A program made the position numbers and the translations under genes. The notes under the pieces were generated by a model. That model was not told the DNA's origin and did no database searches. It saw only the letters and a program-made list of their open reading frames with translations. Shown in pieces: positions 2,368 through 61,451 of a DNA stretch of 64,000 nucleotides. The number at the start of each line of letters is the position of its first letter. Positions within the stretch are counted from its first letter, which is position 1. The DNA comes from an uncultured Candidatus Saccharibacteria bacterium (lineage in GTDB: Bacteria > Patescibacteriota > Doudnabacteria > UBA920 > VMFF01): contig CAYIKZ010000001.1 in the NCBI GenBank assembly GCA_964364285.1, forward strand, positions 17,237 through 81,236. Direction: 5' to 3'.

Positions 2368-2391
2368 GCGGCCCACTGTTGTCAGTGGGCC
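2368..2391 (+). terminator. terminator hairpin after the M50 protease gene
   Basis: GCGGCCCACTG-TTGT-CAGTGGGCC followed by a T-rich tract. Confidence 0.55.
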
Positions 2392-2760
2392 TTGTTGTTG
2401 TCTGGAGCGATGGGCTATTGCTCATCGCGCGAGGGGAGTCTCGCGCTCAACGCTACTTCGTTGAACGTCACCTCAGTGACGGGGCGCCAGTCGATCTGGT
2501 TAGCCAGTGCCAGAAGCGGCACCGCAAGATCCGGGTAATGATTCCGGAGGCCGAAGAGGCAATGGGTTCTCGGTGCGTCGCCACGCAGCGCGTGAGCGAG
2601 ATCACTGATCAGCCTTGCTCTGTAGCTGATAGAGCCGGCGACTTCGATGGTGAGCAGTCCTTCGCTGGTCTCCGAAAAGGTGAACTGGTCGTTCGCGAAC
2701 AAAGATCTTCCTACCATGGGTCCCCCTGTGTGGTTGTCCGTTCCTGCTATCTCACGCATT
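2388..2760. other. GC-rich island A (about 60% GC) with no confidently assignable CDS
   Basis: Abrupt compositional shift between the M50 terminator and the rpsL promoter. It contains several perfect hairpins (GCGCGAG-GGGAGT-CTCGCGC, CGTCAC-CTCA-GTGACG). The long ORFs on both strands lack a ribosome-binding site. Confidence 0.5.
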
Positions 2761-2804
2761 GTATACTAACTAATTTAAAATGCAAAACGGTTTTTTGTGG
2801 GGCT

Positions 2805-2833
2805 TTGACATTTTGCTTGGATGGTCGTATAAT
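2805..2833 (+). promoter_or_regulatory. sigma70-type promoter of the str operon (rpsL)
   Basis: TTGACA-17 bp-TATAAT, a perfect consensus, about 120 nt upstream of the rpsL GTG start. Confidence 0.7.
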
Positions 2834-2955
2834 TAGACACGTATATCATTTCGATATCAATTAATTAATCACTAAATACGGAGTAACCCATCGCACGGGT
2901 GAAAGAGCAGTGAGGTTCCAATCCCACGCAACCGTTTTTAGAAAGGATAAGCAGA

Positions 2956-3363
2956 GTGCCTACAATCAATCAGTTGGTGCGCCGAAAACGCACCCCACTC
3001 AAGAGCAAATCAAAAACTCCTGCTCTAGAGCGACGTATTAACGTAATAAAAGGACAGACCGTATGGCGTCCAAGCCCTTTTATGCGTGGAGTTTGTTTAA
3101 AGGTCTATACAACCACACCAAAGAAACCAAACTCAGCTTTGCGTAAGATCGCAAAGGTACGTTTGACCAATGGTATGGAAGTTTTAGCCTACATTCCAGG
3201 AATCGGACATAATTTACAGGAACACTCTGTGGTTATGATTCGAGGTGGAAGAGTTAAAGATCTTCCTGGTGTTAGGTATCACATTGTTCGAGGAAAACTC
3301 GACACTCTTGGCGTTGAAGGTCGTAAACGCAGCAGAAGTAAATATGGAGTAAAGAAATCATAA
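2956..3363 (+). CDS. rpsL: 30S ribosomal protein S12
   Basis: [12 protein letters not shown]... is a canonical S12 N-terminus. GTG start. Confidence 0.95.
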
Positions 3364-3367
3364 ACAT

Positions 3368-3868
3368 ATGCCAAGAAAAGCACGTTCAGTAAAGCGTCAT
3401 CCAGCAAACCCAGATCCAAAATTTGGTAATGCTAAATACGGTAAATTCATAAATTATTTAATGCAACGCGGAAAGAAAAATGTTGCTCAAAAGATTTTTT
3501 ACATGGCTTTAGAAGAAGTCTCAAAGAAAATGTCTACTGCAGAACAACCAGTAGAAGGTAAGCAGATCTTTGAACAAGCATTGAGAAACATTGCTCCTTT
3601 AGTTGAAGTCAAAGGCCGCAGAATCGGTGGTGCAAACTACCAGGTTCCAATGGAAGTTGTTGAACCTAGAAAAACCGCTATTGGAATGAAGTGGTTAATC
3701 GCAGCTGCTCAAGCTAGAAAAGGTGCTCCTATGCATCAGAAACTCGCTGCTGAAATTATGGATGGATACAACAAGATTGGCTCCGCTATAAAGAAGAGAG
3801 AAGATACGCACAGAATGGCTGAAGCAAACAAAGCTTTTGCGCATTTTGCTAAATTCCAAAGAAGATAA
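3368..3868 (+). CDS. rpsG: 30S ribosomal protein S7
   Basis: S7 family by sequence and position after rpsL. Confidence 0.93.
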   Translation: MPRKARSVKRHPANPDPKFGNAKYGKFINYLMQRGKKNVAQKIFYMALEEVSKKMSTAEQPVEGKQIFEQALRNIAPLVEVKGRRIGGANYQVPMEVVEPRKTAIGMKWLIAAAQARKGAPMHQKLAAEIMDGYNKIGSAIKKREDTHRMAEANKAFAHFAKFQRR

Positions 3869-3879
3869 CATATAAATAA

Positions 3880-59591: not shown

Positions 59592-59597
59592 TTAAAA

Positions 59598-60287
59598 ATG
59601 AAAATGGCAAAAAAAACATTTGTTCTTTCACTTGGTGGTTCAGTTTTTGTTCCAGACAGTATTGATACAGGGTTTTTAAAGAAGTTTAAGGTTTTCATAG
59701 AGCAACAGATTAAAAAAGGAAATCGATTCATAGTCGTTGCAGGAGGCGGAGCAACAGCAAGAAAATACAGAGATGCAGGTGCTGCAGTTGTTCATAAAAT
59801 GCCGATTGAGGATTTAGATTGGTTAGGAATTCATGCTACTCGTTTAAATGCGCAGCTCTTGAGAACAATATTTAGAGGAACAACATACCAGAAAGTTATT
59901 AAGGATCCGACGAAAAAGCGTAATATTAAAGCGAGTTTAATAATTGCAGCAGGGTATAGACCAGGGAACTCAACAGACTATTGTGCTGTTTTGATTGCTA
60001 AGAATTATGGCGCAAAGACCGTTATAAACTTAAGCAACATTGATTATGTATACACTAAAGATCCAAAATTAGCTGGAGCAAAAAAGATAGAGAAAATATC
60101 ATGGACTGAGTTTAGAAAAATAGTTGGTAATAAATGGGATCCGGGTTTACACGCACCATTTGATCCGATTGCAAGCAAACATGCTCAGCAAAATAAACTT
60201 CGAGTTGTGGTTATGAATGGCAAAGACTTTAAGAACCTTGAAAACCTAATTTCTGGTAGAAAGTTTAAAGGAACAGTAATCGAATAA
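59598..60287 (+). CDS. pyrH: UMP kinase (amino-acid-kinase fold, archaeal-like short form)
   Basis: FVLSLGGSVF and VVAGGGATARKY motifs. Confidence 0.7.
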   Translation: MKMAKKTFVLSLGGSVFVPDSIDTGFLKKFKVFIEQQIKKGNRFIVVAGGGATARKYRDAGAAVVHKMPIEDLDWLGIHATRLNAQLLRTIFRGTTYQKVIKDPTKKRNIKASLIIAAGYRPGNSTDYCAVLIAKNYGAKTVINLSNIDYVYTKDPKLAGAKKIEKISWTEFRKIVGNKWDPGLHAPFDPIASKHAQQNKLRVVVMNGKDFKNLENLISGRKFKGTVIE

Positions 60288-60288
60288 C

Positions 60289-60588
60289 ATGGAAGAGACA
60301 ATTGTCGATTTAGAACATATAGAAGAGAATAATGTCAGTGTTAAAAGCAAACGCTATGCGTATTTGTTTTCTTTTCTTTTTATGCCACTAGGGTTATTCA
60401 TTGCTCTATACTATTTTGTTTTTAGCGAAAAAAAAGACGCAAATAAAGTATCTCTTGTTTGCGTTTTAATAACCATATTCACAGCAGGAGCGTTTTTAAT
60501 AATGTTCCAGATAATTCTTTCATCATCAAACGTTTCAACAGAGCAACTTCAACAAACACCGCAGATGCTTAATGACCTGTTAAATTAG
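60289..60588 (+). CDS. hypothetical two-TM small membrane protein
   Basis: Hydrophobic helices. Host-like composition. Confidence 0.35.
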   Translation: MEETIVDLEHIEENNVSVKSKRYAYLFSFLFMPLGLFIALYYFVFSEKKDANKVSLVCVLITIFTAGAFLIMFQIILSSSNVSTEQLQQTPQMLNDLLN

Positions 60589-60590
60589 CT

Positions 60591-60619
60591 TTGACAAAAC
60601 AAGGATCGAAGGTTATGAT
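60591..60619 (+). promoter_or_regulatory. sigma70-like promoter at the left edge of island E
   Basis: TTGACA-17 bp-TATGAT. Predicted TSS about 60626, followed by a 120-nt leader. Confidence 0.55.
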
Positions 60620-60747
60620 GTGAAACTAACAAGTGGGCTACAAGTCTTAGTTACAAAGAAGTTTGTATCTCTGACTCTTAGCTCACCAACGAGCAGAGTA
60701 TCCTTCAGGGGATAGTATTATCACAATTTGCATGGAGGATGCTGACG

Positions 60748-61389
60748 ATGGATACTACATCGCTCACGTCCAATGGTCGACCCACTCGAGGCCAAATTCG
60801 TCGCGTGCGGAACTTGGCTTGGGAGGCAGTGGAAGAAACCTTGGAGTGCAAGTTCCCTTTCACGTACGGGCAACTCCAGGTAGTTCATACTGCCGGTGGC
60901 AAGTTTAAGGCGAAGTTCAGCGTTGCTTTTCGGGAGTTCGTCTTCGCCTTCGCTCTCAAGGAAGCCGGGTTCTTCACTACCGTTGCTGCTCAGAAGACTG
61001 GTCACGTTCCACCTGGCTGGACGGTGAAGAGTGATAGTCTTGAAGGCGAAATCAACCTCAACAATCTGGACTACTCTTCTTGCGCTTTGTGTGAAGGCGA
61101 CGAACTCGTCGACGGCGCGACAATGCTCGAGAGGGCAGGCGACGCTTACGGCAGTCTTGGCTTCGCGTCCGTCCTACTCGAGGCGCAAGGAGAAGGCAAG
61201 GAGATTTTCCCTGTCGAGTCGCGTGGCAAGCATTATTTCCTGATGCCACGTACGATTCTGCTCAACGAAAATGAGAAGCCATTCGTGGCTTGCTTCCTCT
61301 GGGGTGGTAAGGACTGGAATCTATACTACAGTCCGCTCAGCTCCGATTTCGGGGACAGCGATCGGTTTGTACGCCCTCGTCAGCACTAG
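60748..61389 (+). CDS. hypothetical protein (213 aa) encoded in GC-rich island E
   Basis: GGAGGA 8 nt upstream of the ATG. About 56% GC. Followed by terminator CCCCACACT...AGTGTGGGG. No recognisable family. Confidence 0.55.
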   Translation: MDTTSLTSNGRPTRGQIRRVRNLAWEAVEETLECKFPFTYGQLQVVHTAGGKFKAKFSVAFREFVFAFALKEAGFFTTVAAQKTGHVPPGWTVKSDSLEGEINLNNLDYSSCALCEGDELVDGATMLERAGDAYGSLGFASVLLEAQGEGKEIFPVESRGKHYFLMPRTILLNENEKPFVACFLWGGKDWNLYYSPLSSDFGDSDRFVRPRQH

Positions 61390-61451
61390 CTCACGGCCAT
61401 TGTGGCCTGCTTTGCCCCACACTTTGACTTCGGTCAGAGTGTGGGGTGCTG

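Follow-up and report, generated by a model that had tools for sequence, protein, structure and literature searches.

What are five short GC-rich blocks doing between the housekeeping genes of an AT-rich Patescibacterium? The question arises from a 64,000-nucleotide stretch of contig CAYIKZ010000001.1, which was analyzed as a whole and is called the window here. The initial annotation had offered two answers, a family of horizontally acquired single-gene cassettes or an assembly or construct artefact. We designated the open reading frames (ORFs) of the blocks at positions 2388-2760, 6062-6300, 36151-36900, 39217-39700, and 60626-61450 as I1, I2, I3, I4, and I5, respectively. In the explanation that we regard as probable, these islands are five separate accessory protein genes, each a complete expression unit between a housekeeping terminator and the next promoter, and their alleles are exchanged. 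By its database matches, I5 is homologous to C-terminally hypervariable binding proteins that are rewritten by diversity-generating retroelements (DGRs) in other Patescibacteria.

The compositional contrast that had been described was confirmed. The GC content of the window is 38.1%, whereas those of the blocks I1-I5 are 58.4, 54.4, 53.1, 53.5, and 53.1%. When GC was measured in windows of 150 nucleotides, the five island runs were the only ones that peaked above 0.55 across the whole stretch. For the comparison of genes, 70 curated host ORFs and one plausible ORF per island were used. The GC content of the island ORFs was 0.545-0.586, against 0.373±0.025 in the host (n=70, maximum 0.438; z about 7-8.5). 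The GC content at third codon positions (GC3) was 0.59-0.71, against 0.294±0.045 (n=70, maximum 0.405; z about 6.6-9). Thus, both base and codon composition are atypical in the islands, with GC and GC3 lying 6.6-9 standard deviations over the host genes.

The translation signals also differ. GGAGG(A) is located 6-8 nucleotides 5′ of the start codon in I2, I3, I4, and I5, and I1 has GGGGGA, not GGAGG, before a conserved start at 2717. In contrast, GGAGG was found upstream of none of the 70 host genes, and any 4-mer core of it in 13 of them. The earlier statement that four island ORFs carry this signal among native genes poor in Shine-Dalgarno (SD) sites was therefore upheld. That all four GGAGG genes fall among the five islands has a hypergeometric probability of 5/C(75,4), about 4e-6. 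The minimum free energy of the start region (-30 to +30) was -8.4 to -15.9 kcal/mol in the islands and -4.6±3.7 kcal/mol in the host, whose start codons have AU-rich, weakly folded surroundings. The contrast between islands and host in composition and translation signals is real and far beyond chance. The islands are a compositional class (GC3 about 0.6-0.7), not one protein family.

As a separate observation, the host genes are nearly devoid of SD sites, and several possess a -10-like box a few bases before the start codon. At recJ (36941-36958), the -10-like sequence TGCTACAAT ends 6 nucleotides before the ATG. Since SD sites are missing and -10-like boxes lie close to start codons, the sequences suggest that host mRNAs are leaderless or very short-leadered.

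Labels of the L and P series are our handles for the sequences that were compared with the window. By RecJ, the closest relatives are L013 (97% identity), L027 (88%), and L014 (87%), and the next is at about 55%; these RecJ-based relatives place the organism near Candidatus Doudnabacteria. Further relatives were L101, from a Joint Genome Institute (JGI) metagenome, and L009, L181, and L182, from homologue look-ups. The background of the relatives is about 38-41% GC, and a GC spike occurs at the same locus wherever the island is present. The five genes of the window are as follows.

2415-2717, minus strand: I1, 100 amino acids (MVGRSLFAND...), with GGGGGA 4 nucleotides upstream.
6066-6275, minus strand: I2, 69 amino acids (MSHDADK...), with GGAGGA upstream.
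36256-36846, plus strand: I3, 196 amino acids, with a C-terminus that varies in patchwork fashion.
39278-39682, plus strand: I4, 134 amino acids, a basic protein with a conserved CxC...HxxC motif.
60748-61389, plus strand: I5, 213 amino acids, a member of a Patescibacteria DGR variable-protein family.

The minus-strand location of both I1 and I2 corrects the initial annotation. The minus-strand ORF of I1 (GC3 0.69) is retained in L093 (92% amino acid identity), L101 (66%), and P0039 (83%); from the window sequence alone, an upstream ATG at 2759 would also be possible. A plus-strand ORF of 161 amino acids in island 1 is broken in L093 and was discarded as spurious, and for this reason the 100-residue ORF starting at 2717 was taken as the I1 gene. 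I2, which is 98.6% identical in L093, is predicted from its sequence to be a single-pass membrane peptide.

The initial annotation had described the islands as interruptions of conserved operons. However, they occupy operon boundaries, not operon interiors. For example, rpsL has its own promoter (TTGACA-17-TATAAT, 2805-2833) just past island 1. Island 2 had been placed between fusA and tuf, but its neighbors are fusA and two ORFs of unknown function, and tuf begins only at 9207. The statement that all five islands are flanked by terminators holds in part: in each of the five slots, an intrinsic terminator stands on one side of the island or on both, and two-sided flanking is not general. The borders and signals of the slots are listed below.

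2370-2391, plus strand: intrinsic terminator (GGCCCACTG-TTGT-CAGTGGGCC and a T-rich tail) between the M50 peptidase gene and the I1 3′ end, kept in L093 and L101.
6007-6061, plus strand: fusA terminator hairpin with 25-nucleotide arms, the left border of island 2, kept in L101.
6059-6293, no strand: island 2 indel, the exact segment (I2 and its SD) that is missing in L101, where the flanks are 86% identical.
6303-6331, minus strand: sigma-70-like promoter (TTGACA-17-GATAAT) pointing into I2, kept in the I2-less L101.
36880-36914, plus strand: I3 terminator with a 15-bp stem, also found upstream of recJ in the I3-less L027.
39694-39746, no strand: bidirectional terminator hairpin common to I4 and the convergent PEGA gene.
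60591-60619, plus strand: I5 promoter (TTGACA-17-TATGAT), conserved in L009 and L181.
61413-61448, plus strand: I5 terminator with a UUCG loop, facing the convergent GT39 gene.

Within these slots, the island proteins evolve 3-60 times faster than their neighbors, as measured by nonsynonymous divergence (dN). Between the window and L009, dN of I5 was 0.365, whereas those of serS, the AA-kinase gene, the 99-amino-acid gene, and the GT39 gene were 0.006-0.017. A sliding comparison of the same pair gave about 93% identity in the flanks and 57-78% in the I5 island, with sharp edges at 60648 and 61548. Identity of the I4 protein was 45-62%, against 87-88% for RecJ and 70-76% for PEGA. The non-coding surroundings are more conserved than the island ORFs themselves; the promoter, leader, and SD of I5 are nearly identical in the window and L009 up to the ATG.

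Presence of the genes is also variable. The initial annotation had proposed to look for empty loci in relatives, and such loci were found for two islands. L101 lacks I2 together with its SD and keeps the fusA terminator and the promoter on the other side. I3 is absent from L182, where the gap between gpmI and recJ is 65 nucleotides, and from L027, where the I3 terminator is retained. I1, I4, and I5 were present in all sampled relatives.

Furthermore, the alleles do not follow the host tree. In the flanking genes, synonymous divergence (dS) makes the window and L009 sisters (0.33-0.44) and L181 distant (1.1-1.4, with 1.2-1.4 between L009 and L181). In I5, the smallest distance is that between L009 and L181 (0.69), with the window remote at 1.13 from L009 and 1.59 from L181. 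The history of the I5 gene is thus incongruent with the host tree at synonymous sites. Similarly, the I4 proteins of L027 and L014 are the most divergent (37% identity) despite the closest RecJ (91%). The evidence shows gain and loss of ORFs and points to the replacement of alleles instead of a single recent import. Most simply, recombination in the conserved handles would replace alleles as a whole, with occasional loss.

The mechanism that we propose is as follows. The slots would be neutral sites in a Doudnabacteria-related groundwater Patescibacterium. As the comparisons show, the handles (promoter, leader, ribosome-binding site, and terminator) stay conserved and the ORF between them is hyper-divergent, ORFs have been gained or lost in the case of I2 and I3, and the alleles of I4 and I5 depart from the host phylogeny. 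We infer that homologous recombination in the handles swaps the alleles between lineages, and the outcome would be a small set of contingency or interaction genes whose turnover is much faster than that of the core genome. The strong SD may offset the stable folding of the GC-rich initiation regions, the host itself relying on AU-rich, SD-less leaders. Expression would probably be gated by SD sequestration in the I3/I5 leader, and by switching between terminator and antiterminator in the I4 leader.

The I5 and I4 distances also bear on the view that the islands are vertically inherited native genes. Under this view, they would evolve fast in place by relaxed or diversifying selection and without lateral replacement, and selection would hold their GC-rich codon content, with regulated translation or the structure or stability of the mRNA as possible targets. 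In every clade member sampled, I1, I4, and I5 indeed occupy the same loci, and GC3 is 0.58-0.77 across saturated dS. The conserved leaders suggest integration into host control, and DGR targets in four other Patescibacteria loci are 8-12 GC points up, which suggests a gene-intrinsic property. However, the dS values of I5 contradict the host tree (L009-L181 closer than window-L009, with the flanks reversed), the amino acid distances of I4 are incongruent, and the occurrence of I2 and I3 among relatives is patchy. We therefore judge vertical inheritance unlikely and prefer allele exchange.

Foreign-looking composition normally ameliorates. In the islands, the high GC3 is persistent: it is 0.58-0.77 in every island orthologue (0.58-0.66 in all I4 orthologues), against 0.26-0.36 in host genes, despite saturated synonymous sites. 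For each of the five genomes examined, the I5 family exceeds the value of its own genome by 10-22 GC points. Background is exceeded by 8-10 points in two other Patescibacteria DGR targets, with their reverse transcriptases (RTs) below it. The DGR target is likewise 8-12 points above the locus background in L011, L012, L083, and L038, with RT and Avd at or below it. At fourfold sites, the frequencies were A 0.15, C 0.27, G 0.30, and T 0.28 in the islands and A 0.33, C 0.13, G 0.06, and T 0.48 in the host. Whole-gene adenine depletion by RT mutagenesis was rejected as the cause of the high GC; the T/A asymmetry at fourfold sites is similar in islands and host, and thus there is no A-specific signal. 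Candidate causes of the high GC3 are replacement out of a GC-rich pool, biased gene conversion in loci prone to recombination, and selection on mRNA structure. Among the fetched AT-rich Patescibacteria loci, which comprise recJ and fusA neighborhoods only, no GC-rich SD-bearing ORFs were found outside this clade.

Searches for an origin gave the following results. No credible match was found for any of the five island proteins in Pfam, PHROGs, PADLOC, or NCBIfam. By tblastn, 50,697 phage records contained no match to I1, I3, I4, or I5, an IMG/VR scan with the I5 family profile found none, and neither did a BFVD fold search. I5 has 34 homologues, and all named ones are Patescibacteria or an unclassified "bacterium" metagenome-assembled genome (MAG). 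No homologue of I1, I3, I4, or I5 came from a named lineage outside Patescibacteria. An exhaustive HMMER search with I1 (1.8 billion representatives) returned one orthologue cluster and two repeat-protein matches; the latter, to VCBS-like and HEAT-like repeats, involved different parts of the query, look spurious, and were not accepted as remote homology. On these searches, I1 and I2 are classed as clade-restricted ORFans. The island ends have no terminal inverted repeats or conserved target duplications (one 11-nucleotide AT-rich pair is not in L101), and transposons or elements like miniature inverted-repeat transposable elements (MITEs) were rejected on these grounds. No mobility genes, integrases, or tRNA-adjacent sites were found near the islands.

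These results bear on a recent acquisition in which GC-rich donors that are not Patescibacteria (for instance, a host bacterium or phage) would have supplied the islands, followed by too little time for amelioration. Such an event would account for the foreign GC, the codon use, the strong SD, and the empty sites of I2 and I3. We nevertheless consider it very unlikely. The islands were already GC-rich in lineages at dS >1, homologues of I1, I3, and I4 occur in this clade only, and no named non-Patescibacteria phylum supplied one for I5. In 5.8 billion proteins, there was no closer homologue from GC-rich non-Patescibacteria or viruses, phage and viral matches were absent, and neither integrases, tRNA-adjacent sites, nor flanking repeats accompany the islands. 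Accordingly, the cassette family of the initial annotation survives only in part. The islands carry one gene each with its own expression signals, sites of I2 and I3 are empty in relatives, and I4 and I5 are incongruent. However, they do not form a single family, relatedness being limited to I3 and I5; the searches yielded no external donor, phage, or mobility gene; and GC-rich homologues at the same loci across saturated dS, which that annotation had itself named as contrary evidence, speak against simple recent acquisitions.

For I5, a class of origin can be named. DGR variable proteins with a C-type-lectin fold in the variable region (VR) include the targets of the Patescibacteria-restricted DGR clade 2 (Roux et al. 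2021, PMC8144416). In L011 and L012, two unrelated genomes, the I5 homologue is followed by bAvd and an RVT_1 RT. The last 137 nucleotides of the gene in L011 and the last 130 in L012 recur about 480 nucleotides downstream at 82% identity. In L011, 24 of 25 mismatches between the VR and this template repeat (TR), and in L012, 21 of 23, are at adenines of the downstream copy. An A-specific VR/TR pair is the defining signature of a DGR. On these alignments, the I5 family is a proven DGR target in L011 and L012. I5 is 44-53% identical to the DGR-target homologues (E about 1e-40 to 1e-46). The UUCG-loop terminator is conserved 3′ of I5-family genes, including the proven DGR targets, with compensatory changes.

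In the family alignment, a conserved core is followed by a C-terminus in which an invariant F/W/L scaffold alternates with freely varying positions. In the AlphaFold2 model of I5 (predicted local distance difference test, pLDDT, 90), three helices make up the N-terminal domain and the C-terminal domain is mixed alpha/beta; the structural neighbors of the model, weak and below the usual significance, are C-type-lectin folds including Mtd and TvpA. Mtd of a Bordetella phage and TvpA of Treponema are reportedly DGR variable proteins of this fold. Thus, I5 resembles these targets and those of DGR clade 2 in its homology to genes that have a 3′ VR of about 130 nucleotides, TR, Avd, and RT, in its pattern of invariant scaffold and variable positions, and in its weak fold neighbors. 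It differs from them in that the window possesses no TR, RT, or Avd, the A-signature and the motif resembling the initiation of mutagenic homing (IMH) sequence are decayed, and the I5 family, for which there is no Pfam model, has an extra N-terminal helical domain. Only I5, and distantly I3, belong to this lineage; I1, I2, and I4 are outside it.

The region of I5 that corresponds to the VR is the following.

61255-61389, plus strand: VR-equivalent 3′ end of I5, with the A-specific signature and the IMH-like 3′ motif degraded.

The searches for DGR components covered the 64-kb window. It contains no TR copy of any island 3′ end, and tblastn with the RT and Avd of L011 and L012 gave nothing below E 0.3. 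The VR-equivalents were then aligned to the heterologous TR of L012. The non-A mismatch was 2% for the VR of L012 itself, 14% for L009, 28% for L181, and 38% for the window, and the A-site mismatch was 55% for the window, against 64-73% for L012 and L009. The same IMH-like motif, CGGTTCGTTCGTCCCCGCGAG, occurs in both L009 and L012, as does a downstream element of about 60 nucleotides. Several positions of this motif are changed in the window, where a deletion has also removed most of the element. Hypervariability of the VR was not seen in exact-sequence look-ups, which are biased: P0001 differs from the window I5 at one residue, outside the VR, and the P0002 allele is identical in 15 contigs. 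Since no TR, RT, or Avd is in the window, the A-signature has decayed, the motif is mutated, and the element is deleted, the window I5 looks like a former DGR target, an orphan copy outside retroelement control.

These data leave little probability to the idea that a DGR encoded at another site of the genome still acts on I5, and perhaps on I3, as remote targets and that retrohoming drives their divergence. The family is a proven target elsewhere, DGRs are common in Patescibacteria, and the VR of L009 is A-biased against a heterologous TR (73% A against 14% non-A mismatch) and has an intact IMH-like motif. However, besides the components missing from the window, its VR does not show the A-specific pattern (55% against 38%), its motif is mutated, and its 3′ element is partly deleted. 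The divergence of I5 extends over the whole gene and is not confined to the VR, the VR is identical in P0001 from separate contigs, and the P0002 allele is shared by its 15 contigs. Moreover, I1, I2, and I4 would not be accounted for.

Four complete Patescibacteria DGR cassettes were observed in the course of this work, at L011 4001-6592, L012 4001-6547, L083 2980-5851, and L038 8259-11177, and each has A-specific VR/TR pairs. Directly upstream of the target gene in L012 (2461-3809) are an AbiEii-like gene and a HicA/HicB toxin-antitoxin pair.

I3 has only two database homologues, and its orthologue in L014 is 28% identical. Alignment by hhalign with the I5 family gave a probability of 78% and E 2e-5 over the N-terminal 92 amino acids, and about 70 nucleotides of leader are common to I3 and I5 at the DNA level. 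Because of the common leader and this E value, I3, a near-ORFan, is assigned as a distant paralogue of I5 through the N-terminal domain and the leader. All-against-all BLASTP among the five island proteins detected no relationship, and a single protein family for all five islands was rejected; only the link between I3 and I5 survives. I4 has relatives in this clade only, and its CxC...HxxC motif, kept in five of five orthologues, is putatively zinc-binding. By these comparisons, two islands (I3 and I5) are of the DGR variable-protein lineage and three (I1, I2, and I4) are clade-specific ORFans.

The leaders in front of I3, I4, and I5 are candidates for regulatory RNAs.

36150-36255, plus strand: I3 5′ leader, structured (TGGGCT..hairpin..CTCTTAGCTCAC-N-GAGCAGAGTA..GGAGGAT), common with I5.
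39076-39225, plus strand: I4 leader, near-invariant and non-coding, with a promoter-like site at 39041-39069 and an intrinsic terminator at 39194-39217.
39239-39257, plus strand: I4 5′ untranslated region hairpin (CTTGGG..CTCAAG), in which L027 and L014 carry compensatory changes, as read from the sequences.
60626-60747, plus strand: I5 5′ leader, two hairpins and a helix in which the GGAGGAU ribosome-binding site is paired.

The I3/I5 leader was also located in L009 (3886-4003), L181 (3880-4003), and L014 (938-1056). It comprises a hairpin with seven covarying pairs in five sequences, a second, invariant hairpin (CTCTTAGCTC/GAGCAGAG), and a 3′ helix on GGAGGAU. The single-sequence fold of the I5 leader is unusually stable (z -4.5), and the conserved TGGGCT and AGCTCA blocks can form an alternative long-range pairing. 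Among 180 fetched loci, the motif was found only at these loci, and an IMG/VR scan detected none in viral contigs. In the I4 leader, an alternative helix excludes the terminator at 39194-39217 (z -3.5). The spacer between rnhA and I4 (39041-39225) is 95-100% identical in four lineages whose flanking-gene dS is 0.8-1.4. Since there is no separate promoter between the terminator and I4, read-through control of I4 is plausible, and this leader is a candidate attenuator or small RNA. Both resemble cis-regulatory leader RNAs (riboswitches, attenuators, and SD-sequestering thermosensors), the I3/I5 leader in its covarying hairpin and SD-pairing helix, and the I4 leader in its intrinsic terminator, its mutually exclusive helix, and its near-invariance. 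In contrast to known cis-regulatory leaders, neither belongs to an Rfam family (the I4 leader was also examined by an E-value scan), and the evidence comes from four to five sequences of one clade.

Whether the islands are natural was decided by their recurrence. The exact I3 protein is encoded, with the same junctions, in 12 contigs of independent assemblies (samples ERR3858110-12, the ENA Hainich H52 assembly, and several SRR326966xx runs), and the context gpmI-I3-recJ-rnhA-I4-PEGA is common to them. A look-up of the exact RpsL protein returned 17 contigs with the I1 and I2 junctions. Orthologous islands occupy the same loci in MAGs of other projects with 80-93% flank identity, and conservation extends to the promoters, leaders, and terminators lying across the junctions. 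All islands are under purifying selection (dN/dS 0.11-0.52). Between the window and L093, I1 shows 19 synonymous and 8 non-synonymous changes, and between the window and L013, I4 shows 9 and 5. The island ORFs stay open in orthologues, and the GC3 signal is frame-specific. Thus, the islands are real and natural, not assembly errors.

The artefact alternative of the initial annotation, in which GC-rich fragments of other organisms would have been mis-joined into an AT-rich contig and which the abrupt composition change at the island edges might recall, is refuted by the identical junctions in independent assemblies, samples, and related MAGs, by the conserved junction-spanning signals, and by the purifying selection on the ORFs, and keeps virtually no probability. 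It is just as improbable that the islands are structured non-coding RNAs with fortuitous ORFs: islands of high GC in AT-rich genomes frequently turn out to be RNAs, and the present ones do have hairpins, but a gathering-score Rfam scan of the whole window and two relatives matched no island and, in the window, found only tRNA-Leu at 127-213, also the only ARAGORN call in the window, and the open ORFs, synonymous excess, and frame-specific GC3 contradict this view.

Returning to allele exchange between conserved handles, several results weigh against it. Between the window and L013, the closest strains, I3 and I4 are no more diverged than the flanks. The incongruence of I4 is mainly amino-acid-based because its dS is saturated over about 80-90 synonymous sites. 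The fold match of I5 to C-type lectins is under the usual significance, the predicted structure of I3 (pLDDT 37) is an unusable model, and the leader structures share the narrow sampling given above. No donor pool or vehicle was found; phage and viral collections returned nothing, and neither repeats nor mobility genes came to light. If replacement took place only among genomes of about 38% GC, a GC3 of 0.6-0.7 would be left unexplained. Since four of the five proteins have no functional homologue, the term "interaction or contingency genes" is drawn from evolutionary behavior.

A more specific form of the exchange proposal goes further. It holds jointly that GC-rich hypervariable ORFs in fixed slots are swapped laterally between conserved handles of regulatory RNA and terminator, independently of any retroelement; that some of the ORFs descend from DGR variable proteins; that a dedicated process, either biased conversion tied to exchange or selection on mRNA structure, keeps GC3 at 0.6-0.7; and that both leaders are previously undescribed cis-regulatory RNAs that gate the cassettes. 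As a whole, this is a doubtful proposal, and we put it forward tentatively.

Some observations concern the neighborhood. Blocks of 100% identity alternate with blocks of 88-97% in comparisons of window 1-8371 with L093 and of 30956-43407 with L013, and this mosaic therefore points to recent homologous recombination between co-occurring strains. The rpsL 5′ leader (2834-2955, about 120 nucleotides) is nearly identical in the window, L093, and L101, with nearby genes at about 86% to L101; it has no Rfam match at gathering score and may be a ribosomal-protein leader element. Between fusA and tuf, 6362-8826 contains two ORFs of 112 and 690 amino acids with host composition. Neither they nor their relatives have a Pfam match, and an insertion in the str region is unusual. 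tRNA-Leu(CAA) at 127-213 lies inside the 5′ part of a 360-amino-acid ParB ORF (100-1182). Because of this overlap and a 316-amino-acid ParB call in some relatives, the long start is probably wrong.

Two known kinds of variable locus invite comparison. Replacement-type flexible genomic islets are fixed-position hypervariable loci whose alleles are exchanged via conserved flanks, for example, O-antigen and surface-protein loci. The islands resemble them in fixed position, conserved flanks, divergent alleles incongruent with the tree, and patchy presence. They differ in that each is one small gene and not a gene cluster, in that the handles are short regulatory RNAs and terminators and not flanking genes, and in being far GC-richer than the genome, persistently, which is the reverse of the usual AT-rich foreign DNA. 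With integron cassettes they share single ORFs of unknown function, hairpin-forming ends, and variable presence. However, a cross-comparison of the islands detected no common attC-like element, and only the I3/I5 leader was shared. There is also no array, the hairpins are intrinsic terminators common with the neighbors, and most islands bring their own promoter or leader. The islands vary on two known kinds, orphan DGR targets and replacement-type islets, and bring with them two candidate regulatory RNAs and an anomaly of composition that persists.

The genomes of Patescibacteria are tiny, and these bacteria presumably rely on other cells. Fast-turnover genes in such genomes are the best candidates for host or phage interaction, and here they can be picked by composition alone, through a GC3 about twice the genome value and a strong SD in an SD-less genome. 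Callers of genomic islands or horizontal gene transfer may flag the neighboring ribosomal and elongation-factor genes owing to these islets. One island is tied to the DGR variable-protein class and would represent an orphaned target decaying after loss of its retroelement. The persistence of high GC3 together with allele replacement between handles offers a concrete, testable anomaly in the maintenance of base composition.

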